Below are positions 1-62,808 of a stretch of DNA of 64,000 bases, piece after piece (within the stretch, counting starts at the first letter, position 1; each line of letters opens with the position of its first letter). The stretch is taken from the NCBI RefSeq assembly GCF_004010195.1, contig NC_057758.1:2306417-2370416 (forward strand), written 5' to 3'. The DNA comes from Chiloscyllium plagiosum. Its lineage: Eukaryota. Below the pieces are notes generated by a model, which worked only from the letters and a program-made list of their open reading frames with translations, searched no databases and had not been told where the DNA came from. Made by a program: the position numbers and the translations under genes.

Positions 1-1126
1 CTTTTGATACAAACTCTACCCGTATGAGTTGCTGTCCCACTTCCGTCTCAGGGTCCACCCCAGCGAACTGCTGCAAGTTCTTCCTAATCCTGTCTAGGAA
101 GTCTGTAGGGGTTTCTTCCGGGTTTTGATGATTCCCAAAGGCCTTGGTAAAATTGTGCCCCTTCTGGGCTGCCTGCCTTATTCCTTTTATCCAATATTCC
201 CGCATATCCCTCATGTTGCGTCTTCCTTCTTCAGTTTGTTTATCCCACTCGGGGTCGGTGAGGGGAAATTTCTGCTCCCCTCCTGCTCCTCTCTCTCTCT
301 CCCAGACCAACAGCGCAGCTTGTCGTATCATCTGTCGCTCCTGGCTAGAGAACAATGTTCCCATGATGGAATACATCTCATCCCACGTGTAAGTATTTGG
401 CCCCAGGAACTGATCTAATTGTTCAGCCAGGCCCATGGGGTCCTCCAGGAGGCCCTTCATCTCCCTCTTGTAATTCCGTACTTCAGTACTCGTTAAGGGG
501 ACGTTCACATATCCCGTCCCTCCTTCCGCGCCTCCCATGGGCACTTCCCGGGGTGGATTCATTCTTGCAATCGGGACAGAGTTTCGTCTGCGACTCTTTT
601 CAGCTTGAGATCTAGTCTGTACTCCTGAGGCACCGGGTGGTTCCTCCCCGCTTTCTTCCCCTTCCCCTGAATCGTCGCCACCCGAAGGACTATTTTGTGG
701 GGCAGACGGGGTCACGTAGGGCGGCGGTAAGTGATCTAAAGGTTCCCAATCTTTCTGCCCTTTCGAGTCTTCATTGGCTACCTTCATTTTGCAAGATAGT
801 GCGACTGGTAGCCAACAAAGGGCGTAATCACTTTCCTCCCGAGTAACATTAGGTTTCGAATTGACATATAAAATTAGAGCTTGCCGGACCCAGTGTGCAT
901 CAGTGCCGAATTTAGGCCACCACACTGAGTCTCCCTGAATAGGTTTTTGGGACAACGTTCGACAGTATTTCACCATCTTCTGTCTAGATTTTCCTTTTTC
1001 CCTACCCTGACCCCAATTATTTAACATTATACCTAACGGACTATCGGCAGGTACCCCGGGGTATTTTTCATTGTCTACGCTCAAGCCTACCTCTCCCTCA
1101 TCCGCCTTGGATCCCTTATTTCCCAT
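1..1126 (-). CDS. gag: Class I (gamma/epsilon-like) endogenous retrovirus Gag (MA, late-domain region, CA); open frame running off the window edge
   Basis: Manual translation from ATG at 1126 (gcaATGG) has no stop in 375 codons: MGNKGSK (MGxxxS myristoylation)...PADSPLGIMLNNW...WWPKFGT...LPPPYVTPSAP...PPREVPMGG...YVNVPLTSTEVRNYKREMKGLLEDP...PNTYTWDE...FPLTDPEWD...HQNPEETPTDFLDRIRKNL (MHR)...VDPETEVGQQLIRVEFVSK. Confidence 0.93.
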   Translation of the reverse strand, partial: MGNKGSKADEGEVGLSVDNEKYPGVPADSPLGIMLNNWGQGREKGKSRQKMVKYCRTLSQKPIQGDSVWWPKFGTDAHWVRQALILYVNSKPNVTREESDYALCWLPVALSCKMKVANEDSKGQKDWEPLDHLPPPYVTPSAPQNSPSGGDDSGEGEESGEEPPGASGVQTRSQAEKSRRRNSVPIARMNPPREVPMGGAEGGTGYVNVPLTSTEVRNYKREMKGLLEDPMGLAEQLDQFLGPNTYTWDEMYSIMGTLFSSQERQMIRQAALLVWERERGAGGEQKFPLTDPEWDKQTEEGRRNMRDMREYWIKGIRQAAQKGHNFTKAFGNHQNPEETPTDFLDRIRKNLQQFAGVDPETEVGQQLIRVEFVSK

Positions 1127-1870
1127 TGCCGAGGACTTTGTAAAATCGGAAATTCCTGTATTATCCCGTGATAATCTATCACTATTTAGCCAATTCCCGG
1201 ACTTTCAGTCCTGTGATCGCCCAGGTCCCTTTGCAGGCACCCCCGGTCTTTGGATTCCTGTGTCCCACGTCTCTGTAGAAAAATCTACAGGCACCCCGTA
1301 GGTCCACGTTCCTCCGCAAACACAGTCTCTGCAAAATCTCGCACAGACGAGCCCCGGTCTCTAGATTCCGGAGTCCCACGTCTCTGTAGAAAAATCTACA
1401 GGCACTCCGCAGGTCCCCAGTCCTGCGCCGAGGCTAACAATGTCTTCTGATTAAATACAGGACAAGTCCCTGCCCTCTGTGGCTCTAAAGAGTCACAAGG
1501 TTCACATTCTAAACCGTTCAGCAATTTTCCATTCTATATCCTTATCTTAAAGTCTATAGCAGATGTCTCCCGAGTTGTTTTTTTTCTTCTTACCCTGTCG
1601 TCTTATCAGTCAAGGACTTATTCTTCTCTGTCAGAGTTAGTTGTCCTATTAATCAAGGACTTGTTTTTCTATTCTGTGTGAGTGGTCTTATCAATAAAGG
1701 ACTTGTTTTTCTACTCTGTCAATGTGAGTGGTCTTATCAACCCGTAGCAGCAGATGTCTCGTCTTTTATTACAGAGAAGCATGTTTTACCCTACCCCTAT
1801 GGCTCTATTCCCCTTAGACTCTGAAGTCATGCACATCCCAGTTGTTTGTACCGAAATCGTCTCTCACAGA
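1127..1870 (-). mobile_element. ERV 5' leader (untranslated); no PBS or LTR seen
   Basis: Lies directly upstream of gag. Contains direct repeats with a CTGTAGA-AAAA-TCTACAG hairpin at 1273-1290 and 1384-1401, about three ~43-bp repeats at 1600-1740, and a candidate splice donor CAGGGTAAGA at ~1588-1597 (minus). Confidence 0.65.
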
Positions 1871-4800
1871 GGATAAGGGCTTCAGGAGGTTTTTACAGAA
1901 ACGGCGAAGGTGTACGGAGAAGGTTATTGCAATGAATGATTACTACAATGCATTGATTAGGGAGGAGGAGACAGATGTGGAGGTGCTTGGTGTCAGCAGG
2001 ATGCTGCAGAAACAGGGAGGTGTGTAGGTACTGGAGAAAGTTACAGAGACAGGGAGAGATGCAGATTCTGGAGAAAGTTAATATCCTTTTTAAAGATGAT
2101 GTGCTTTTTCCTATGCTCAGAGACTCAGAAAGACGTTTGAAATGGAGAAAAAAAGAAAGAAGCAAGGGAACTTTAACAGCTGAATTATGGTTACAAGCAA
2201 AAGAAAGCCATAAAGAAACAAGATAAAAAGTTTGAACTTCATAATTTGTTAATTAGACTGGATAGCCGACAGAAAATGATGAAAATTATGCTCAGAGACT
2301 CAGAAAGACGTTTGAAATGGAGAAAAAAAGAAAGAAGCAAGGGAACTTTAACAGCTGAATTATGGTTACAAGCAAAAGAAAGCCATAAAGAAACAAGAGA
2401 AAAAGTTTGAACTTCATAATTTGTTAATTAGACAGGATAGCCGACAGAAAATGATGAAAATGAAGATAGAGGATAGGAGGAGAGTGATGATAAGCAAAAC
2501 CATCATATCCAAAGGCCTTGTAAGCATGTATGCAACTATGTCAAAACATTCCTAGAAGTCAATGAAACAGGATGCAGAAGCATTTTTCATTCCCTTGAGA
2601 AACTGGCGAGGCGGATGAACTAGCCAAGACTGTGTGGGCAATGTTAATTCAGACCAAGTTGGTTGGCCGGGCTAGTGAGGTGTTTGCAGCGCTTTCGAGG
2701 TGGTGTAACAAGGCTACGTGAAGTAAAACAGTCTATTTGAGTAACGAAGAATTGAAACAGGAGCCTGAATACAAACGTTCAGAAATGAGAAACTGGCGAG
2801 GCGGATGAACTAGCCAAGACTGTGTGGGCAATGTTAATTCAGACCAAGTTGGTTGGCCGGGCTAGTGAGGTGTTTGCGGCGGTTTCGAGGTGGTGTAACA
2901 AGGCTACGTGAAGTAAAACAGTCTATTTGAGTAACTAAGAATTGAAACAGGAGCCTGAATACAAACGTTCAGAAATGTGTTTCCCAAAGATCAGTCTTAT
3001 TTCCAGTTTGAAAAAAATAAAACAGAGCAATTTCGATAGATGGATGAGAGAATTAAAGATAGAAAATGCATATGAGGATCTTAGAGATGTCATTCTGGGA
3101 TAGGAGAAGTGATATGATCTCATGTTGAGGAATAGAAAGTTAAATCAATGAGATGAACTGCAGAGAGGGCAGATGAATATAAACAATATGAATTTAACTT
3201 TAGCTTCCGACAGCAAACTCATTCTGTGTGGTATAGAAACTGAGTAGGAAGCATACACTTCAATGGAAAACAAAACTTGGATCACACTGAGAACTGGTAA
3301 AAGATTACCACATCCAAAAAACAAAAGAAACCTAAGAGAATGCAAAGAGATAAAACACCTCAGGTCGTGTGGGGCACACAAAGTCATTGTGCTGGTGGTT
3401 AAAGAACGGATGTGTTGAAACTGGACGTACCAGTGGCATTATTTCGTTGAGTGAAGAACATCCCAAGAGAATTCGAGGATCTGGAGGAAAGTGCACAGCC
3501 GAAACACCGGCTGGATAGAAACATTCCACTGAATCCCTTCGAAGATTCCACTTGTGTGGGTAGGTTTTAATGAAATGGAATAAGAGATGCAGGTAAAGAG
3601 ATTACAATATTGAGAGGTACAGGAGCTAGTCTGTGTATAATACTAAGAGCTGAGAATATTTGTACTCCTTCTGAAATGTTAGCGAGAGAGTGGCAATCTG
3701 TGTAATAAACGGAGAGAACATTATTGTTCCCATGAGTAAGATAAAACTAGAAAGTCCAGTTAAGACTGGAAAAATGATGGTGGGAGTGATTGAAAGAGTG
3801 GCTATTCTAGGACAACAGTTTTGCCTTGGAAACGATATAGCTGGACCACCGTTGGGAGTGATGCCCCTTCCCGTGGAGAAACAAAAATAAAGCAAGGGAA
3901 CTCAGCCACATCAGAGTAAAATACACTGGAAGTTGTCCAGAATATGTGGTGATAACATCCCATGGTAATAACTTAAAACAATAAAGGAAAAAAAAAAGAA
4001 ACGTTAAGGTGTTGAGGTTCAATGGGCTGACACTCTGCTTTATGAAATGGTTAATAAAAGACCTGAACAGGCAGAGGATCAGGCTGAAGATTATTGGTTT
4101 TTCAACGAACCAAGATAAGGTGACAAAATAGTTGCATTATAAAGCCTTCTCAGAGAATGAATCATAATGAATTCCAGAATGCTTTTCCCTTAATGATAAA
4201 AGCTTAAAGCGGAAGTGAAGACCTCGGCATGTTTGTGTTGATGGAAAAGAGTGGAAGTTCACCAGATATTGTTTGTGGCGCAATATGGACAAGCGATATG
4301 GCGAGTAGCGCACAAATTATCTAGAAGAATACATATAGCAGTGACGAAGACTCAGGTTAAGATACAGCAGCCTGGATAACATAATGATGTAGTTGCATTT
4401 TGCTGTGCATATCATACGTATCAAATGGTCGGTAAGCCACAGACAATGAAAAGGTCAGGCCTTGGAGGCGAGTTCCCGCATTTGAGAAACATCTGAAGGG
4501 TTATAACTGATAGTGTAAATTCCCTCATTAAACTAAACGCAGAAATCATTGTTTGCTAGCAATGACGGATGTGTCTACCAGACTTCAGGACGCAATTTTA
4601 TGATGCTATATCAAGAAAAAATAAAGTCGGGGAGGAATCGTTTCCCTTCTTTACCCATTGTAGATTACCCAGGGAGATTCAGTCATACCAAGAGCCTAAT
4701 TTTCCTGCCGAAGAATTGAATGTGGCCATGGAAATCGAAACTTTAAATCAAGTGCGTAATGTCCTGCATTCCAGCGTGCATTGGAACTGGACATTCTGTT

Positions 4801-6092
4801 TCGATGGAACTGATTGGGAAAGAGGCTAGCAAGAATGGTTATGCATAACTTGGAAATAAAGCAATTAAAATCTACTTCGTCCCATCCAGAATCACAGGGA
4901 GCACTGGAAAGTTCAAATACTAATGACCTTGTTGAAGGTTTGTGATCAAGATTAAACATATGATTGGGATAAGGCAGTTTTGGTTGTACGTTTGCGATCA
5001 GAGATGCATCGAAAGAATCCACCAAATTCTCTCCATTTGAAGTAATGGTTGGGCAAGAAGTAAGAGGAGCGTTAAAACTGACATAGGAGATATTACTAAA
5101 TCAGAACTCAGAGACCTCACATTTTGATGATGTGTCAATTTTTAGAGAACGATTGAATAGAGTTGGAGAGTTTGCTAGACAGCAATTAAAATTATCAGAG
5201 CATACAAAGCAACAAAATCGCAAGTTTATAATTAGAAATAACATATTGATGTTACCTTCAGTAACAGCTTAGTCTTTACAAGCAAGATTTTTTTGGAGCG
5301 TTATCAAATCGAGAGGAAATTAAGTGAGGTGAATTACTTGATAAGGACTCCAGACAGGAAGAAATCTCACAGACTGTGTCATGTGAATATGCTCAAAGAT
5401 ATTTTGATAGGGAAGGAAAGCAAGAGGGGAAGGTGTTAATGATAACAACATAGCAGGTAGAATCAAGTTCAGAGGCTTCTGAATTGCACCCTCCTCATAT
5501 CAAATTGGACAATGAGGAAGTTGTCAAAAATTGAATAAATTATTGAGTTAACTTCCTCAAGAAAATCGAAATGACCTGAAAGAGTTATTATTACCACAAT
5601 GGGAGGCATGTGGAAATAAACTGGGAAGTACTAGCCTAATTGTTCATGATGTAAATATAGGAGATGTTGTTCTGATTAAGCAACATCATTTTAGGCAGAA
5701 CCCCAGAAGGTTGGCACAGGTTCAGAAGGAGATAGAGCGCAAGCTCCAAGAATGCAAAATCGAAGTGGGTTACAGTGACAGGAGCCAGCCATAGTTATGG
5801 TGCCAAAACCAGATAGTACGTAAAGGCTTTGTGTGGACGATCGCGAATTATACACCATTACAAAAACTGATGTAGATCTAATTCCACGATTGGATGACTG
5901 TGTCAAAAAGGTGGGAGAAGAAACTTACATTTCTAAGTTGGAGTTTCTCAGAGGCTCATTGCAAGTACCTCTGTGAGAGAGAACAACGGCTGTTTCGGAT
6001 TTCGTAACGCCAGATGGATTAAATCAGTTCAACGTCATTCCAGCCACTAACTAATACAATCATTGCCGGATTACCAAACTATGTAGTGCATA

Positions 6093-26986: not shown

Positions 26987-29490
26987 AATAGACAATAGAC
27001 AATAGACAATAGGTGCAGGAGTAGGCCATTCAACCCTTTGAGCCTGCACCGCCATTCAATATGATCATGGCTGATCATTCCTAATCAGTATCCTGTTCCT
27101 GCCTTATCTCCATAACCCTTGATTCCACTATCTTTGAGAGCTCTATGCAACTCTTTCTTAAATGAATCCAGAGACTGGGCCTCTACTACCCGCTGGGGCA
27201 TTCCACACAGTCACCACTCTCTGGGTGAAGAAGGTTCTCCTCATCTCTGTCCTAAATGGTCTACACCGTATTTTTAAGCTATGTCCTCTGGTTCGCCACT
27301 CACCCATCAGCGGAAACATGTTTCCTGCTGCCAGAGTGTCCAATCCTTTCATATTCTTATACGTCTCAGTCAGATCTCCTCTCTGTCTTCTAAACTCAAG
27401 TGTGTACAAGCCCAGTCGCTTCAGTCTTTCAGTGTAAGGTAATGCCGCCATTCCAGGAATTAACGTCGTGAACCTACGCTGTACTCCCTCAATAGCCAGA
27501 ATGTCTTTTCTCAAATTTGGAGACCAGAACTGCACACAGTACTCCACGTGTGGTCTCAACAGGGCCCTGTACAGCTGCAGAAGCACCTCTTTGCTTCTGT
27601 ACTCAATTCCTCTTGTTACAAAGGCCAGCATGCTATTACCCTTCTTCACTACCTGCTGTACCTGCATGCTTGCCTTCATTGACTGGTGTACAAGAACACC
27701 CAGATCTCTCTGTACTGCCCCTTTACCTAAATTGATTCCATTGAGGTAGTAATCTGCCTTCCTGTTCTTGCCACCAAAGTGGATAATCATACATTTATTC
27801 ACATTAAACTGCCATGCATCTGCCCACTCACCTAACTTGTCCATGTCACCCTGTAATCTCCTAACACCCTCATCACATTTCACCCTGCCACCCAGCTTTG
27901 TATCATCAGCAAATTTGCTAATGTTATTGCTGATACCATCTTCTATATCATTAACATATATTGTAAAAAGGTGCGGTTCCAGCATGGATCCCTGCAGTAC
28001 CCCACTGGTCACTGCCTGCCATTCCGAAATGGAGCCATTTATCAGTACACTTTGTTCCCTTTCAGCCAACCAATTTTCAATCCAATCTACTACTTTGCCC
28101 CCAATACCATGCGCCCTAATTTTACTCACTAACCTCCTATGTGGGACTTTATCAAAAGCTTTCTGAAAGTCCAGGTACACTACATCTACTGGATCTCCCT
28201 CGTCCAACGTCAGAGTTATATCCTCAAACAATTCAAGAATATTAGTCAAGCATGATTTCCTCTTCAAAAATCCACGCTGACTCTGTCCTATCCTGTTACT
28301 ACTATCCAGATGTGCCGTAATTCCATCCTTTATTATAGACTCCAGCATCTTTCCCAGCACTGAGGTCAGACTAATTGGTCTAAATTTCCTGCTTTCTGTC
28401 TCCCACCTTTCTTAAAATGTCGTATAACATTAGCCACCCTCCAATCCTCAGGAACCGACCCCGAATCTATCGAACTCTGGAAAATAATCACCAACGCAAC
28501 CACGATTTCCCGAGCCACCTCCTTCAGTCCTCTGGGATGCAGACCATCAGGCCCCAGAGACTTATCAACCTTCAGACCTAACAGTCTCTCCAACACCAAA
28601 TCCTGGCAAATATAAATTCCCTTAAGTTCAGGTCCTTCAGCCACTGTTACCTCAGGGAGATTGCTTGTGTCTTCCCAAGTGAACACAGATCTGAAGTACC
28701 CATTTAATTCCTCCCCCTGCCTCCTCCTGGGGTCTTTCTTCCTTTTAGGAATGAACTGATCCTAAATATCCGCAGAAATATCCGCCATTGTTCCTCCACG
28801 GTCTTCCCTGTTAAAGTATTGCACCATTGAACTTTGGCCAGCTCCTCCCTCATAGCTCCATAATTCCCTTTATTCAACAGAAGTACTGTCACTTCCGACT
28901 GTACCCTCTCCCTCTCAAATTGCAGATTGAAGCTTATTGTATTATGGTCACTACTTCCCAATGGCTCCTTCACTTTGAGGTCTCTGACCAATTCTGGTTC
29001 GTTACACAATACCAGATCCAGAATTGCCTTCTCCCTGGTCGGCTCCAGCACCAGCTGCTTTAAGAATCCATCTCTGAGGCACTCCACAAAGTCTCTTTCT
29101 TGTGGCCCATACCATCCTGATTCTCCCAGTCTACCTGCATGTTAAAATCCCCCATAACAACTGTAGTGACATCTTTGCAACAGGCCAATTTCAGCTCCTG
29201 ATTTAACTTGCATCCGACATTCAGACTACTGTTTGGGGGCCTGTAGATGACTCCCAAGAGGGTCTTTTTACCCTTAGTATTTCGAAGCTCTATCCACACT
29301 GACTCTACATCTCCTGACTCTAGGTCCCCCCGCGCAAGGGACTAAATATCGTCCCTTACCAACAAGGCCACCCCACCCCCTCTGCCCGTCAGTCTGTCCT
29401 TATGATAACACGTGTAGCCTTGAATATTAATTTCCCAGGCCCTGTCCACTTGAAACCACGTCTCAGTTATCCCCACAATATCGTATCTGC
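26987..29490 (-). mobile_element. Young CR1 LINE ORF2 (APE and RT), 5'-truncated, internally deleted near 28703, frameshifted
   Basis: 400-aa ORF 27158-28360 has YLDFQKAFDKVPH, SGVLQGS and FADDTK; APE motifs YRPP, GDFN and SDH at 28950-29480; (TAGACAA)n tail at 26988-27012. Confidence 0.95.
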
Positions 29491-42310: not shown

Positions 42311-44018
42311 TTCCATTTTCCAATTTCAGCGCATTTCTTTTCTTGTAACTGCTCAGTTCCCCTGTTTTCTTCTGGTATTTCTACGACAATAGGCATCAAT
42401 CCAACGTGTGGTCAAGCTACACCATTTTCAAGAATAAACTATTCCTGGAATAGCCAATTTTTCCAATCCTCATGCTATCATTCCCCAGACTTGACTGTAC
42501 TTTTTAGCCTTAATTTACACAGGAGAACATTACTCTTTTCTCCATTTATACCTCAGATTTCCACTCTCTCGGGCAATATTTCAGAAGAAGTGCAAACCTT
42601 TTCATCTCTTATTATTAGAGACAGATCACCTCCCATAGCTCTCAATGTTTTAACTTATCTTCCTCAGTCCCCTGAATTAATCTTACACACACATGTGAAG
42701 TCTTTGAATACATCGAGTGCTAACATACTATCCAGCCCATAACGAGGCTGTGCATTCTGCTGCAGCTCTTCGAATTCTCGCAATATTTTCTTCATTATTT
42801 TAACTCATCCCATTTGTTCAGCGCCTTTTACCACATTCTTTTTCCCAGTGTCTTTCTTAAACTGCCAGTACTTTGACTTTGTGTGCCCCACCTTATTGCA
42901 ACGAAAACACGAGTTCTTTCATCTCTTTTCCAAACTCCTGGATTTCTTTATTTTTCATTATATGTGATAAATTGTTCCCAGTGTGATCTAATTTTTGCTT
43001 TTCATTGAAGGATCTTCCTCTTTCCCAATTTCTAGCCCTCACGGAATGAAATTCCATTCTGAAGCTAGATTTAGATTTGTGCCCTAATACATATTCATCC
43101 GCCATCGCTGCAGCTCTTCTCGCTGTTATAACTTCCGGCTCCTCAGCATGAGTTCTTATCATTTCTGTAGGTAAGTTTGCAAACTCGATAAGCAGAATGA
43201 TACCTCTAAGAGCCTAAAGCGTCTTTTCTATCTTTAATGCTCTCATCAATTTATCAGAGTTGCTTTGTTTAATTCTTTCAAACTTGATATAAGTCTGACT
43301 TGGTTCCTTTCATAAATGTTTGATACGCTGTTGATGTGCTCTGGTACCAATTCGTAAGTACTCAAAATAGCCTCTTATTTTAAAAAAGTCATTTTTTTAT
43401 CATTCTCTTCTGATACATCTTGCAAAAAAATCATTAGCTCTAACTTTATTTAGATCAACAAAACCCACCTTGTCTCTGGCCAGTTAATCTGTGTCGCCAC
43501 TTTCTCAAAGGCGAACCCTTTGAACCCGATGCAAATAGCAAAATGATAAGAAATTTATTGAGTCTCATAAAACCTCGATTCTCTGTTTATTTCCTATTAC
43601 AGTCCAATCTTAATTATAAAGAAATCTCAATCATCTGCGTTAATAGACACATATTCATACTGATTCTTTACTGAAGCAGGAAACGTGCAACCTAGTTTTA
43701 GTTATTTTTATGCACCGGGAAGAAGAAGGTTGAGGAAGTGAGATCATTAAATCATCGCATCTATTAAGGTTAACAGTTGAATGGAGTCTCACAAGGAATA
43801 CAACCTGACAATGACAAAACTCCAGCAAGCACATATTTAGTGATGTCTGCTCGATTCGAGCGAATCACCCACATGTAGATAATTAACAACGATTGTTCCT
43901 CTCAGTAACAAAATATCAGCGCTCTTAGGTGTGGTACTCTATGTTTGAAAGTAATCAGTGCAATTTGGCATTGACTGACACGCAGTAATGGGCGGAACTG
44001 AGAATTGCAAGTGCTGGA

Positions 44019-46490: not shown

Positions 46491-47009
46491 AATACGGTAG
46501 CCCTAGTTTGTATAAACATCCTGCACTGTCCAGCAGCTTCATAACATCTCAACAAACATCGTGAGATCCTTTCGTTCTTTCCTTTTAGGAGCCGGTGTTA
46601 TCCATTTCGGAGAGGTCCATGTTTTCACCTCAATGTCATTTTTTTGTGAATGGCGGGTTGCGGGAAGATGTCTCTGTGGCTCCACCACCACACTCCTGAC
46701 TAGTTTCTGCTCCCAATAAACACTTTTTCTCTCGATCTATTCCAGTCGCCAATTTCTCACTTCTCCCTTTCTTGACTTTGCTGTCTATCTTTCTCACCTC
46801 TTGGCTACACCAAGGTAACCGTGTCATCCACTAAGGGGTGAGTTGCGTCCAATTGAGAACAATTTGATTTTACCTGCTGTACCCTATCTTCAGCATTTTC
46901 AAGAACATAAGATTATCCCAGCAACAATCGTTCAACTGGGTGATTGTGTTGTCCGCTTTGTTTCTCCGACCGAGGCGTTTAGCTGTTTTATTTGAGTTCT
47001 AGTGCTCTT

Positions 47010-49275
47010 GGGGGTGGGGGGCTTTAAACTAACTCTGCAGGGGCATGGGAAGCCAGACTGCAGCTTTAGGGTGCAGGACCTGGAGTGTACGGAGGTTAGG
47101 AACATGGCATCAATTTCAAGGGAGGGTGCCCGTAAACAGGAAAGTGGCTTTAAGTGTGTATACTTCAATGCAAGAAGTATACAAAATAAGGTAGGTGAAC
47201 TTGCAGCGTGGGTTGGTACCTGGGACTTCGATGTTGTGGCTATTACGGAGACATGGGTAGAACAGGGACAGGATTGGCTGTTGCAGGTCCAAGGATTCAA
47301 ATGTTTTAGTAGGGTCAGAGGTGGGGGTAAAAGAGGGGGAGAAGACTCGTCATCTGAGGTAGTTTGGACTGAGGTGAGGAATAGGAAAGGTGAGCTCACC
47401 CTGTTAGGAGTTTTTTACAGGCCTCCTAATAGTCCTAGAAACGTAGAAGAAAGAATTGCGAGGATGATTCAAGAGAAGAGGGAAAGTAATAGGGTGGTTG
47501 TTATGGGGGACTTTAACTTTCCAGATATTGACTGGGAAAGCTATAGCTCGATTACTCTAGTGATGGAGAGGGATACGTGTGCACTACAGGGCAAGAGTAA
47601 TAGCTGGGGGCAGGGAAATTATGATGCGGTGAGGCATGACTTAGGATGTGTGGCTTGGAAAAGTAAGCTTCAAGGCAAGGGCGTAATTGATATGTTGAGC
47701 TTGTTCAAGGAGCAACTATTGAGTGTACTTGACAATATGTACCCGTCAGGCAGGGAGGAAAGGGTCGTGTGAGGGAGCCGTGGTTTAATAAGGAGTTGGA
47801 ATCCCTTGTTAAATGGAAGAGGGCGGCCTATGTAAAGATGAGGCGTGAAGGTTCAATTGGGGCGATTGAGAGTTTAAACTAGCCAGGAAGGACCTTAAGA
47901 GAGAGCTAAGAGCAGCAAGGAGGGGACATGAAAGGTCCTTAGTTGGGAGGATTAGGAAAAGCCTAAGGTTTTCTATAGGTCTGTCAGGAATAAAAGAATG
48001 ACTAGGGTAGGAATAGGTCCAGTCAAGGATAGGAGTGGGAAGTTGCGTATGGAGGCTGAAGAGATTGGGGAGACACTGAATGAATACTTTTCGTCAGGAG
48101 TAGTGCCAGAAGATTGGAGGCAAGCAAATGTGGTTCCCTTGTTCAAGAAGCAGAGTAGGGATAAACCTAGTAACTATAGGCTGGTGAGTTTCACTTCTGT
48201 TTTGGGCAAAGTCTTAGAGAGAATTGTAAGGGATAGGATTTATGAACATCTGGATAGGAATAATATGATCAAGGATAGTCAGCATGGTTTTGTGAAGGAC
48301 AGGTCGCGCCTCACAAACCTTATTGAATTCTTTGAGAAGGTGACTAAGGAGGTGGACGAGGGGAAAGCGGTAGATGTGGTGTATATGGATTTTAGTAAGG
48401 CGTTTGATAAGGTTCCCCATGGTAGACTACTGCAAAATATGCGGAGGTATGGCATTGAGGGTGAGTTGGAGGTTTGGATAAGGAGTTGGATGGCTGGAAG
48501 AAGACAGAGGGTAGGAGTTGATGGCAAAGGTTCATCTTGGAGTGCCGTCACCAGCGGTGTTCCGCAAGGATCTGTTTTGGGACCATTGCTGTTTGTCATT
48601 TTTATAAATGACCTGGAGGAGGGGTTAGAAGGTTGGGTGAGCAAGTTTGCGGATGATACGAAAGTCGGAGGAGTGGTAGACAGTGAGGAAGGATGTGGCA
48701 GGTTACAGCGGGATATAGAGAAGCTGCAGAACTGGGCAGAAAGGTGGCAAATGGAGTCCAATGTAGCTAAGTGTGAGGTGATTCACTTTAGTAAGAGTAA
48801 CAAAAAGATGGGGTACTGGGCTAACGGTCAGATACTTGGTAGTGTGGATGAGCAGAGGGATCTTGGTGTCCATGTACACAGATCTTTCAAAGTTATAGTA
48901 AATAGTGCGGTGAAGAAGGCATATGGCGTACTGGCTTTTATTGGTAGAGGAATTGAGTTCCGGAGTACTGAGGTCATGTTGCAGTTGTATAAGACTCTGG
49001 TTCAGCTATTACAAGTGGGCATAGCTTTAAATTAAGGGGGGGGGGGTAGGTATAGGACAGATGTTAGGGGTAGGTTCTTTACTCAGCGAGTCGTGAGTTC
49101 ATGGAATGCCCTGCCAGTAGCAGTGGTGGACTCTCCCTCATTATGGGCATTTAAGCGGGCATTGGATAGGCATATGGAAGATAGTGGGCTAGTGCAGGTT
49201 AGGTGGGCTTGGATCGGCGCAACATCGAGGGCCGAAGGGCCTGTACTGTGCTGTATTCTTCTATGTTCTATGTTC
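47010..49275 (+). mobile_element. CR1 LINE ORF2 copy with several internal deletions
   Basis: ORF 47002-47772 APE (YFNARSI, ITETW, YRPP, GDFN); ORF 47998-49035 RT (DFSKAFDKVPH, GVPQGS, FADDTK); (TTCTATG)n tail. Confidence 0.93.
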
Positions 49276-58469: not shown

Positions 58470-61400
58470 GTGGGAATGGGGAAAGCATGCAAACAATTTT
58501 GAGCTTGACTACCCGTGACTCCGCTTTCAATAAATTGTTCACCTGAATTCTAAGTTCCCTCTGTTCCACTGCACTCCATCCTGTCCTGCCGTTCAACATC
58601 AACCTCTATTAAAGTCGATTTGTCATTTGTCCGCCCACTGTCCCAGCTGATCAAAGTCCTGTCGTAATTTCTGATCATCTTCCTCACTGTTCATGGGACA
58701 TTCTCTTCTAGTGTAATCTACAACCTTACTAATCATGCCTTGCACACTGTCATCCATATCATTGACAGAGGTAACAAACAGCAATGGGCCCAGCAGCAAA
58801 CCCTGAGGCACTCCACGAGTCAGAGGCGTCTAGTCCGACAAGCAACCTTCCACTATTACACTCTGCTTCTGACCATCAACCAAATTAGATAACTAATTTG
58901 CCAGGTCCACCTGGATTCCATGCAATCTAAACTTCCAATACAGTCTACAATGTTGATCCTTTCCAAAGGCCTGACCTGAACTTATATAGTCTACGTCTAC
59001 TTCCCTGCCATCGTCACATTTCCAGTCCGTTCATCAAAGAACTCTAGCAAAAGGCTATGCTGTGTGCTCTGAACCACAACATGTCTTTTCGAATGCATGC
59101 ATATTTTATTTCTGAGAATATTGTCAAGAAACTTATAAACCACCGTTAGGCTTCTACATCTATTATCCCAGTATTTGCTTTGCAGCCGGTTTTCAATAAG
59201 GGCTCAATATTCGCGTTCTACCCGTCTTCTGGAACCTTATAGTGCGAAAGAGATGCAAAAACCATCAAACAAGGTTCCCAGAATTTGTTCTTTAACCTTT
59301 TGTAGTGATCTTGAATATATCTGTTTAGGACCAGGCGATTTATCCACGTTCACACATTCTCATATGTCCAACACCGCACTAACTGTGATATAGACTGCCT
59401 CCAAGGTATCAGCGAGAGTAGGTCCGATCAGGGATAGTGGAGGGAACCTGTGCCGTGAGTCGGAAGAGGTATGGAGATCCTAAATTAATACTTTGCCCCA
59501 GTATTCAGTAGTGAGCAGTAACTTGCCGTTTGTGAGGACAGTGAAAACTGGCTGATATGCTCAAACAGTTGGATGTTAAGAAGGAAGATATTCTGAAAAC
59601 TTTGCAAAATATAAGGACAGATAAGTCTGCTGAGCGGGAAAGCATTTACGAAGGTTACTATAGGAAATTAGGGAAAGATTGCTGTCCCTTTGGCGATGAT
59701 CTTTACATACTCATTCCCGGATGCTCCGGTCCCCTCTCACAGTCCAAAACATGTGCAGATTAGGTGAATTGGTCACGCTAAATTGCCAGTAGTGTTAGGT
59801 GAAGGCGTAAATGTAGGGGAATGGGTCTGGGTGGGTTGCGCTTTGGCTGGTCGGTGTGGACTTGTTGGGCGGAAGGGCCTGTTTCCACACTGTAAGTAAT
59901 CTAATCTATTCTAATCTAATCATAATAGAGTAGTACAAAGTGATTGGATGGTGGCAAGTGTTATTCCCCTGTTCCAGAAAAGGAACAGGGAAATCCTGGG
60001 AATTACAGACCAGTATGCTTGTGGTATGTTTGAGATGATTCTGAGAGCCAGCATTTCTGATTACTTGGAAAACCTTCGTTTGATGAGGGATAGTCAGTAT
60101 GGTTTTGTATGAGGTCATACTTCACAAGGCACTTCCAGGAAGTAAGGTGGCATAAGATGCAGGGAAATTTGGCTTTCTGAATACAAAATCGGGTAACCCA
60201 TAGAAGACAGAGTGTGGTAGTAGATGGGCAGTAATCAGCCTGGAGCTCAGTGACCAGTGTTGCTCCACAAGGATCTGTTCTGGAATTTCTGCTTGTTTCT
60301 GATTGTTGTAAATGACTTGGACAAGGAAGTGAAAAGGTGAGTTAGTAAGCTCAGTCATGACACAACATTTGGTTGAGGTTACTCAGCAGTTCTACAGAGG
60401 CCAAGTTCGACCACAGTTGGAATATTGTGTTCAGTTCTGTTCACCTCAATTTAGGAAGGGAAGGAGTGGAAATGTGAGAGGGAGTGCAGCGGATACTTAC
60501 CAGGATGCTGCCTGGATTGGAGGGCATGCCATATGAAGAAAGGTTGAGCGACCTAAGGCTTTTCTTATTTGAACGAAGAAGAGTGAGAGGTGACTTGATA
60601 GAGGTATAAAAGATGCTGAAGGACAAGGAGTGATTGAATAGTCAGAGACTGTTTTATACCACCAGGGCAGAAATGGCTATCAAAAGGGGGCAAAACTTTA
60701 AGATGATTGGTGAAAGGTGCATGAGAGATGTCATAGTTTGGTTCTTAGAAAGTGGTGGGTGCGTGGAATGCACTGACAGCAGAGGGACAAGAGTCAGATA
60801 CATTACAGACATTTATGCGACTCTTAGATAGACACATGGATAAGAGTAATTTGAAGGATATCTGGGTTAGTTTGATCTTAGATTACGATAAAGATTCAGC
60901 ACAACATCGAGGTCTGAATGGTCTGTACGGTGCAGTATTGTTCGATGATACATGTCACCATGAACTTCCCACAGATCCCAAGTCTTCATGTCTTTCTCCG
61001 CTCCATCGGACCGTATATTGAGTATAAAAGTTGGCATGTCATGTTGTTATTGTACAAGATAATGGTTTGGCAGCATTTAGAATACTGTGTATAGTTCTGG
61101 TCGCCACATTACCAAAATGATGTGGTCGCTTTGGAGAGGGTGTAGAGAAGGTTTACAAGGATATTGCCTCGTATGGAAGATGCTAAATTTGTCGAGAAAT
61201 TGAGTAGGTTCGGATTATTTTCATTTAAAAAATGGAGATTGAGGGGGGACCTGATTGAGGTTTACAAAATCATGAAGGGTATAGACAGGGTAGATAGAGA
61301 TAATCTTTTTCCCCGGGTGAAGAATTCAATAACGAGAGGTCACGCTTTCAAAGTGAAAGGTGAAAGGTTTAAGGGGGATACATATGGCAAGTATTTTACA

Positions 61401-62020
61401 TACAGGGTTGTAGGCGCCTGGAATGCGTTGCCAACAGAGGTAATAGAGGCAAGCACGGTAGCTTCTATTAAGATGCGTCTGAACAGATGCATGAGTAGAT
61501 GGGGATTAGAGGGATACAGATGCTTAAGAATTGAGAGATAGGTTTAGACAGTAAATTTGGATCGGCTCAGGCTTGGAGGGCCGAACGGCCTGCTCCTGGG
61601 TTGTACATTTTCTTTGTTATTTGGTAAACACACAGGAGAAACATTCATCCAAGACCTCGCCCACCTCCTACGGTTCTACAGATATACTGGCCAAGAATAT
61701 TAAGGAGGATAGTAAGGCTTTTTTAGTTATGTGCAAGGCCAAAAAATGGTGAGGACAAAAATTGGGACCTTGAAGACAGAAACAGGGGAATATATTACTC
61801 GGAACAAAGAAATGGCAGAGGAATTAAATGGGTACTTCAGATCTGTGTTCACTGGGGAAGACACAAGCAATCTCCCTGAGGTAACAGTGGCTGAAGGACC
61901 TGAACTTAAGGGAATTTATATTTGCCAGGAATTGGTGTTGGAGAGACTGTTAGGTCTGAAGGTTGACAAGTCTCCGGGGCCTGATGGTCTGCATCCCAGG
62001 GTACTGAAGGAGGTGGCCCG
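58470..62020. mobile_element. CR1 fragments (58470-59410 minus; 59410-60950, 61020-61620 and 61690-62020 plus) with a partial HE1 SINE (59720-59920)
   Basis: PQGLLLGPLLF (58623-58811); RLRGDLIEVYKIM (61164-61541); 61830-62020 is nearly identical to the reverse complement of 28510-28703. Confidence 0.8.
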
Positions 62021-62285: not shown

Positions 62286-62808
62286 ACCTCTATCAAGTCA
62301 CCTCTCACTCTTCTTCGTTCAAATAAGAAAAGCCTTAGGTCGCTCAACCTTTCTTCATATGGCATGCCCTCCAATCCAGGCAGCATCCTGGTAAGTATCC
62401 GCTGCACTCCCTCTCACATTTCCACTCCTTCCCTTCCTAAATTGAGGTGAACAGAACTGAACACAATATTCCAACTGTGGTCGAACTTGGCCTCTGTAGA
62501 ACTGCTGAGTAACCTCAACCAAATGTTGTGTCATGACTGAGCTTACTAACTCACCTTTTCACTTCCTTGTCCAAGTCATTTATAAAAATCAGAAACAAGC
62601 AGAAATTCCAGAACAGATCCTTGTGGAGCAACACTGGTCACTGAGCTCCAGGCTGATTACTGCCCATCTACTACCACACTCTGTCTTCTATGGGCTACCC
62701 GATTTTGTATTCAGAAAGCCAAATTTCCCTGCATCTTATGCCACCCTACCTCCTGGAAGTGCCTTGTGAAGTATGACCTCTTACAAAACCATACTGACTA
62801 TCCCTCAT
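62286..62808 (-). repeat. Inverted duplicate of 60083-60605
   Basis: 523-bp reverse-complement match with only a handful of substitutions; ORFs 60122-60358(-) and 62533-62769(+) differ at 2 of 78 aa. Confidence 0.95.

Follow-up and report, generated by a model that had tools for sequence, protein, structure and literature searches.

Why the gag frame at this locus is open

The stretch of the Chiloscyllium plagiosum genome analysed here (64,000 nt, hereafter the window) begins with an open retroviral gag frame, and the question that it raises is why that frame is open. A preliminary description read it as a hidden, intact gag with tandem late domains, belonging to a young and possibly undescribed shark endogenous retrovirus (ERV) or else kept open by selection. 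The frame itself is real. On the minus strand an ATG at position 1126 is followed by 375 stop-free codons up to the window edge (1126→2); measured from stop to edge the frame spans 401 codons (2..1204) and is still open. The probability of 375 open codons by chance in random DNA of the same composition is 1.7e-9. The frame was missing from the open reading frame track because it runs off the window edge, and is recovered once such ends are allowed. Residues 216-365 match the Pfam Gag_p30 profile (E 1.6e-18; 67.4 bits, where the cut-off is 27.4), and an ESM Atlas search returned Gag clusters only. This frame is the Gag of a class I retrovirus. The word "intact" goes too far, since the end of the capsid (CA), the nucleocapsid (NC) and the stop codon lie beyond coordinate 1; pro-pol-env, the 3′ LTR and the target-site duplication would likewise fall outside the window.

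The proposed myristoylation motif, late domains and major homology region are all present where they had been placed (Table 1). MGxxxS is an N-terminal myristoylation motif, and the ATG that opens it has a strong start context, with G at both -3 and +4. Since just 26 open codons come before this ATG, an upstream start of the glyco-Gag type was rejected. In the alignment-based model (mean pLDDT 56) the protein folds as four helices at residues 30-103, a linker, a hairpin at residues 194-206 (strands 194-196 and 204-206) and a helical capsid. The matrix (MA) part, residues 27-111, matches the MA of MoMLV (1mn8) with a middling score (Z 6.4, rmsd 3.3, 79 aligned), and a poor single-sequence model (pLDDT 50) gave no MA match in the structure comparison. 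The best structural matches of CA are MLV CA (Z 12.6 and 12.3; top match rmsd 3.6, 126 aligned; Foldseek E 1.8e-5), and the best solved relative by phmmer is again the MLV capsid (E 1e-18). MLV Gag thus provides the best structural match for both domains and has the same MA-linker-CA-NC order, with the single CCHC knuckle that is seen in relatives of the window Gag, yet the two capsids are only 25-29% identical. Both late domains lie inside the predicted disordered linker between MA and CA. MLV carries PSAP, LYPAL and PPPY in MA and p12 according to the available portion of PMC8402826, whereas a motif scan found no YPxL-type motif in the 375 visible Gag residues.

The frame had been set against a window in which nearly every other retroelement was said to be riddled with stops. 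It is not unique, however: long open retroelement frames are not exceptional here, since LINE-type reverse transcriptase (RT) frames of 417 and 359 stop-free codons are present. These two and a third LINE frame belong to low-divergence non-LTR elements in the same window (Table 1).

Table 1. Features of the provirus, its flank and the long LINE frames. Positions are those of the window.
Feature	Position	Strand	Basis or remark
gag open reading frame, residues 1-375	2..1126	-	3′ end outside the window; colinear with 508-aa C. punctatum Gags, 88-90% identity
Myristoylation motif MGxxxS (MGNKGS)	1109..1126	-	motif match; predicted
Matrix (MA) domain	794..1126	-	four predicted helices (alignment-based model)
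Disordered p12-like linker, residues about 112-190	557..793	-	pLDDT <50 at residues 108-220; between MA and CA
PPPY late domain, residues 134-137	716..727	-	motif match; activity putative
PSAP late domain, residues 140-143, two residues past PPPY	698..709	-	motif match; activity putative
Capsid (CA) from residue 191: N-terminal beta-hairpin, NTD, most of CTD	2..556	-	model and MLV CA matches
Major homology region (MHR), residues 334-346	89..127	-	pattern match; aligns to MLV MHR
5′ leader with two 77-nt direct repeats (1241-1317, 1352-1428)	1127..1428	-	repeat search
Stem-loops, one per leader repeat	1273-1290, 1384-1401	-	RNA fold
Probable internal deletion junction	1425..1431	-	contigs of other copies diverge from the window there
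U3 part of 5′ LTR, TG start at 1868 (probable)	1432..1868	-	depth boundary and loose contig end
42-nt enhancer-like tandem repeats in U3	1579-1740	-	repeat search
TATA-like box in U3	1457-1451	-	motif scan; ~25 nt upstream of the 1425-1431 divergence point
Host flank: decayed Ty3/Gypsy-type element, right end unmapped	1869..6000	+	Integrase_p58_C, E 1.9e-8, in a stop-riddled frame
LINE-type RT frame, 417 stop-free codons	27161-28411	-	RVT_1
Long stop-free LINE frame	46996-47769	+	LINE set with RVT_1, endonuclease
LINE-type RT frame, 359 stop-free codons	47956-49032	+	RVT_1

Leader, LTR and insertion site

Contigs of three public runs follow the window at high depth from position 1 to about 1868 and then drop, with the depth of the family ending at about 1868-1890. 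Of the runs used, X12 and X17 are putative RNA runs, whose contigs are indistinguishable from DNA repeats. A contig of run X12 continues past 1868 into a purine-rich stretch, resembling a polypurine tract (PPT), that ends just before the TG, as would the 3′ LTR of another copy. Given the end of depth and this PPT-like run before TG, 1868 is probably the true start of the 5′ LTR, a placement that rests on one contig's loose end. The sequence that other copies bear beyond 1868 is absent from the 64-kb window. The flank has a low contig depth (31-196), and the provirus appears to have inserted into a decayed Gypsy-type element. RT-like words, read by eye, lie downstream of the integrase-like sequence in this flank, an order that we take to be Gmr1-type. 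The flank also holds two near-perfect tandem duplications, at 2112-2461 (175 nt) and 2596-2977 (190 nt), and a related piece lies at 42351-43298.

Between the leader and U3, contigs from other copies part from the window to the right of 1424 (runs X1 and X12) and to the left of about 1431-1445 (X1 and X17), a junction that is based on one or two short contigs in each run. By-eye comparison with known tRNA ends gave no PBS-like site at 1127-1868, a tRNA search gave no match, and a motif scan recognised no canonical major splice donor in the interval from the LTR to gag. With the contigs diverging at 1425-1431 and neither a primer-binding site (PBS) nor a splice donor found, the window copy probably lacks the R/U5/primer-binding region. 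The missing PBS is a lesion of this copy and not of its family, other copies having additional sequence at about 1425-1431, and the loss would leave the copy unable to be reverse transcribed on its own.

The RNA fold of 1127-1460 is more stable than expected (z = -4.04; 0 of 100 shuffles as stable), and the leader gave no Rfam match. The leader repeats with their stem-loops are a candidate packaging signal. Repeat number varies between copies, both in the leader (1241-1428), where one X17 contig jumps back 115 nt, and in U3, where repeat units are skipped in others (42 and 85 nt).

Relatives in Chiloscyllium and the paired late domains

A protein search with the window Gag gave 38 matches, 26 of them of named source; these 26 comprise 11 elasmobranch and 15 bird sequences, with none from a teleost, an amphibian or a chimaera. 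Further named Gag representatives came from birds, squamates, mammals and Chiloscyllium. The closest are seven distinct proteins of C. punctatum, colinear with the window Gag at 88-92% identity. Six of them (P0002 and P0040-P0044; e.g. XP_072411426 and XP_072411696) are full-length at 508 aa, have one CCHC knuckle each (6/6), are 92.7-99.6% identical to one another and lie on one 76.2-Mb chromosome. The four whose accessions are visible have neighbouring numbers and several RefSeq records each. These six may therefore form a local cluster, through segmental duplication or as a retained gene family, as opposed to scattered proviruses. The window Gag is 88-90% identical to the cluster and 92% identical to a copy on another chromosome. 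Within C. plagiosum, LOC122544214 (P0004) is 89% identical over 271 columns. All of these sequences belong to the same family as the window Gag and share its late-domain block.

The suggestion of an undescribed lineage is thus doubtful, as close kin are annotated in both Chiloscyllium species, albeit as uncharacterized proteins, and as a 2021 preprint (bioRxiv 10.1101/2021.11.23.469661) named ERV-GA.a-Cpu. In its available text this preprint places ERV-GA.a-Cpu and ERV-GA.a-Ara among gamma-related class I ERVs of cartilaginous fish with a gamma-type Env. We infer that Cpu stands for C. punctatum, Ara for Amblyraja radiata and G for gamma-related. The likeness of ERV-GA.a-Cpu to the window family is one of description, and the supplements of the preprint may already contain this Chiloscyllium family. 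Our literature searches found no paper that describes the Chiloscyllium gag family by sequence.

Both late domains are present, as had been described, but their tandem arrangement is not special to this locus. PPPY and P(S/T)AP occur no more than 8 residues apart in 14 of 16 relatives of the lineage. The bird members of the gamma-like group differ, as the closely paired block occurs in none of the nine named near bird Gags. The same spacing recurs in a distant lizard ERV Gag (P0199, 26% identity in CA). Moreover, the available part of PMC8402826 lists a PPxY and P(T/S)AP pair for HTLV-1, Mason-Pfizer monkey virus (hereafter M-PMV) as well as filoviruses, and the PPPYVEPTAP of HTLV-1 has the same spacing as the LPPPYVTPSAP of the window Gag. 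HTLV-1 and M-PMV belong to other retroviral classes and this likeness is convergent. Since 14 of 16 relatives and these viruses carry the pair, it characterizes the lineage and follows a known design.

C. punctatum and C. plagiosum also harbour more distant gag lineages that belong to the bird-related group of the window Gag (P0082, P0223, P0224 and P0065; 34-41% identity to the window). A complete 543-aa Gag on a 5.5-kb JGI contig (P0010) shares 44% identity across the full query and falls loosely beside a shorebird sequence. In the rays Hypanus and Narcine (P0057, P0021, P0009, P0011 and P0026) the capsid is fused in frame to internal RT/integrase sequence without NC and protease, and this fusion is shared among several Hypanus copies. 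Such proteins may stem from internally deleted elements that were amplified, or from joins made in gene models. When longer forms were sought, eight proteins came up, all of them avian, with no Gag-Pol fusion from an elasmobranch, which is weak evidence. The ray relatives tie this type of Gag to an MLV-like RT, RNase H and integrase. An RT fragment of the same retroviral group (P0282), deposited under Klebsiella pneumoniae on a 770-nt contig, is probably host contamination.

Placement among retroviruses

Two capsid trees were built, the first of 45 rows (one of 46 was dropped for short coverage) and the second of 25. The window CA falls in an elasmobranch clade (support 100/99) inside a clade with bird and squamate Gags (100/100), and apart from the sampled mammalian class I rows. 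It is 45-59% identical to 12 named bird Gags, and the Gag of Alca torda is 45% identical over all 375 window residues. The Pol of a ray relative is MLV-like; among the best 120 of 877 matches, the named sequences that rank first for its RT, which is not the window's pol, are from catshark (70% identity) and birds (60-69%), with named mammalian ones at 49-52%. The capsid had been called gamma/epsilon-like. Class I membership stands, with bird and squamate gamma-like ERVs as the nearest named kin outside elasmobranchs, in trees that contain no named epsilonretrovirus. The family probably belongs to a HERV-I/ChiRV1-related group, a placement that leans on published comparisons, as named HERV-I, HERVIP, ChiRV1 and lemon shark ERV sequences are likewise absent from the trees. 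The lemon shark ERV is reportedly HERV-I-related.

Two such comparisons bear on this grouping. An ERV of the lemon shark lies near a human one (PMC4422223), and HERVIPADP has been linked to the avian ChiRV1 (PMC4724089, available text). The elephant shark CmiERV lineages II and III, which are epsilon-like, group with walleye and amphibian epsilonretroviruses (PMC4422223); they share with the window provirus that they are class I ERVs of cartilaginous fish, a comparison made by description.

The CA of the stingray Hemitrygon shares 84% identity with the window CA, and in the tree it joins Chiloscyllium instead of Hypanus, another stingray. In approximately unbiased (AU) tests of groups that were named after the first tree had been seen, holding Hemitrygon with Hypanus was rejected (p-AU 4e-5), and placing the three rays together gave p 0.02. 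Because the Hemitrygon copy groups with sharks, host switching among elasmobranchs is suggested as the simplest reading; ancient paralogous lineages are the alternative. We do not claim several transfers between tetrapods and fish. Monophyly of all elasmobranch rows gave a borderline p-AU of 0.0435 with a long branch involved, and an earlier value of 6e-7 was confounded, one row that nests among the elasmobranchs having been left out of the group.

Copy number, divergence and age

The family is high-copy in bamboo sharks. For the gag bins in the public DNA run X1, contig depths sum to a median of 3149, while the contig across the 1868 junction has a depth of 20.7 (~150-fold); such depth is not a copy number and supports "many copies" only. 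Run X1 is possibly the source of the assembly. A near-identical contig path (depth about 670) differs from the window at 8 of 811 positions, and at least two subfamilies are seen among the contigs, whose likeness to the window is about 99% in the first and about 91-95% in the second. The best run contains 0.45 of the sampled words of 1-1900, which fits an estimated divergence of about 2.5%. The window copy therefore looks to be about 1-2.5% from its nearest subfamily. Elsewhere in the 64-kb window we found no further gag or pol piece of this ERV family, and in metagenome and viral contig scans 0 of 22 and 0 of 51 pattern matches were confirmed as related loci.

The epithet "young" is right as to sequence divergence, but in years the age may be large. 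At the shark rate of 2.2e-10 per year assumed in PMC4422223, 1% corresponds to 45 million years; at 7e-10 per generation (PMC10587355, available text) with an assumed seven-year generation it corresponds to 99 million years, and at a fast bound of 1e-9 per year to 10 million years. Thus, 1% may mean 10-100 million years at shark rates.

Selection on the frame

To ask when selection acted, we separated differences that segregate among copies from those private to the window, the latter being places where all, or nearly all, contigs that cover them disagree with the window. The best-supported 40 of 122 variable places were used, 31 of them in frame, and the sample is biased by that choice. At the 22 in-frame places that segregate among copies, 13 differences are synonymous and 9 non-synonymous (pN/pS 0.21-0.28, P 0.0003-0.003). 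The nine window-only changes comprise 3 synonymous and 6 non-synonymous (pN/pS 0.6-0.8, P 0.34-0.50), a number that gives little power and with which weak purifying selection is compatible. The differences among family copies thus look to be under purifying selection, and the private changes of the window copy look neutral.

At protein level the window Gag is unlike all seven C. punctatum copies at 21 residues, and at seven of these (33, 49, 58, 77, 78, 192 and 321) all seven close copies and all three distant homologues agree against the window. Residue 192 is the change at the capsid start, the PPREVP that the preliminary description had flagged as a possible lesion; its oddity is borne out, since the 7/7 close Chiloscyllium copies and 3/3 distant homologues from which it differs agree with one another.

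How surprising is an open frame? Depending on the indel rate, it would stay open with a probability of 0.57-0.18 if the divergence is 1%, and of 0.32-0.03 if it is 2%. At 3%, with a realistic indel rate, the probability is 0.02-0.06 for a single copy, which is unlikely singly but not in a many-copy family. With the window just about 1-2.5% from its nearest subfamily, an open gag would be expected by chance. The claim that host selection kept gag open is thus not borne out: the 6:3 ratio of non-synonymous to synonymous window-only changes is compatible with neutrality, and the frame stays open with a probability of 0.07-0.57 at 1-2%.

Origin of the locus

We consider it most likely that the stretch is the 5′ end of one provirus of a high-copy, class I, gamma-like ERV family, and that it is a little-decayed but immobile fossil. 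Retroviral Gag binds membranes through myristoylated MA, assembles through CA and buds by an ESCRT-dependent route that is entered via its late domains. By analogy, the LTR of the ancestral virus would have driven the genomic RNA, and its Gag would have been myristoylated, reached the membrane through MA and assembled through a CA lattice like that of MLV Gag. In budding, PPPY would have recruited a Nedd4-family ligase and PSAP would have recruited Tsg101/ESCRT-I. Purifying selection during replication of the family probably kept the frame open, with too few mutations since (about 1-2.5%) for a stop to be likely, and the copy is probably decaying now, with neutral-looking private changes of which several hit conserved residues, including the capsid N-terminus. 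This reading of selection followed by drift is based on the contrast between purifying-looking differences among copies and neutral-looking changes in the window alone.

The same lesion could be read in the opposite sense, whereby loss of R/U5/PBS fixed the copy and U3 now drives a host-retained Gag, with a role such as that of restriction factor or vesicle-forming capsid. The open frame, the strong start context and a U3 that keeps its TATA-like box though the priming region seems lost are what such co-option predicts, and the six full-length open 508-aa gags on one C. punctatum chromosome, four with several RefSeq records each, might be a retained set. Yet the window-only changes are not skewed to synonymous ones and strike conserved residues, the family has many copies in two or more subfamilies, and the clustered C. 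punctatum set resembles the window no more than the copy on another chromosome does. We therefore regard co-option as very unlikely. It is also improbable, if slightly less so, that this copy inserted very recently and is still a complete provirus, in a family with activity or insertional polymorphism today. The 8 differences in 811 positions to a high-depth contig path, the full Gag frames and high protein identity of the C. punctatum copies and the purifying signal among copies would all fit recent activity. They are outweighed by the apparently missing priming region, by private changes at several conserved residues and by slow shark mutation rates, at which 1% is roughly 10-100 million years. 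Moreover, PMC10435555 screened 13 cartilaginous fish genomes, both Chiloscyllium species included, for invading ERVs (identical LTRs, intact gag-pro-pol-env and insertion polymorphism), and in its available text no cartilaginous order is among the 37 with such ERVs.

Lastly, collapsed repeats or a chimera of copies could have produced the open frame, or the 1425-1431 junction, during assembly. The locus is a high-copy repeat, a run contains at most 0.45 of the words sampled from 1-1900 and, among the contigs listed, none spans 1425-1431 with long flanks. However, a low-depth contig across the junction at 1842-1993 matches the window with 0 differences, and the window carries private changes that are unexpected in a collapsed majority sequence, so that an artefact is extremely improbable.

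Significance

As a locus this is an ordinary fossil. For paleovirology the family has modest value, being a gamma-like lineage with bird and squamate kin that is high-copy in bamboo sharks and little decayed. In an available part of a 2018 survey (PMC6001957) the clade containing gammaretroviruses is described as amniote-only, a view that stands against the later gamma-related ERVs of cartilaginous fish (bioRxiv 10.1101/2021.11.23.469661, available text). The conflict between capsid tree and host tree in sharks and rays makes cross-species transmission among elasmobranchs testable with existing genomes. A caution also follows: since shark genomes mutate slowly, an open retroviral frame in them is a weak sign of youth or of domestication.

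A bolder scenario starts from a gamma-like retrovirus of bird/reptile type, of which an elasmobranch branch passed between tetrapods and cartilaginous fish, later spread between sharks and rays, and is still insertionally polymorphic and coding-complete in bamboo sharks. We hold the whole of it to be unlikely; its host-switching part gains support because the Hemitrygon CA groups with Chiloscyllium (AU p 4e-5). If polymorphic, coding-complete members do exist today, they would amount to the first retroviral invasion shown to be under way in cartilaginous fish, of which the available text of PMC10435555 listed none in 2023.

Elsewhere in the window, two inverted matches were noted. One joins 60083-60605 and 62286-62808 (523 nt, 98.9% identity) near a run of N, and the other joins 28511-28713 and 61818-62020 (203 nt, 96.6%); they are either young repeat copies or a feature of the assembly.
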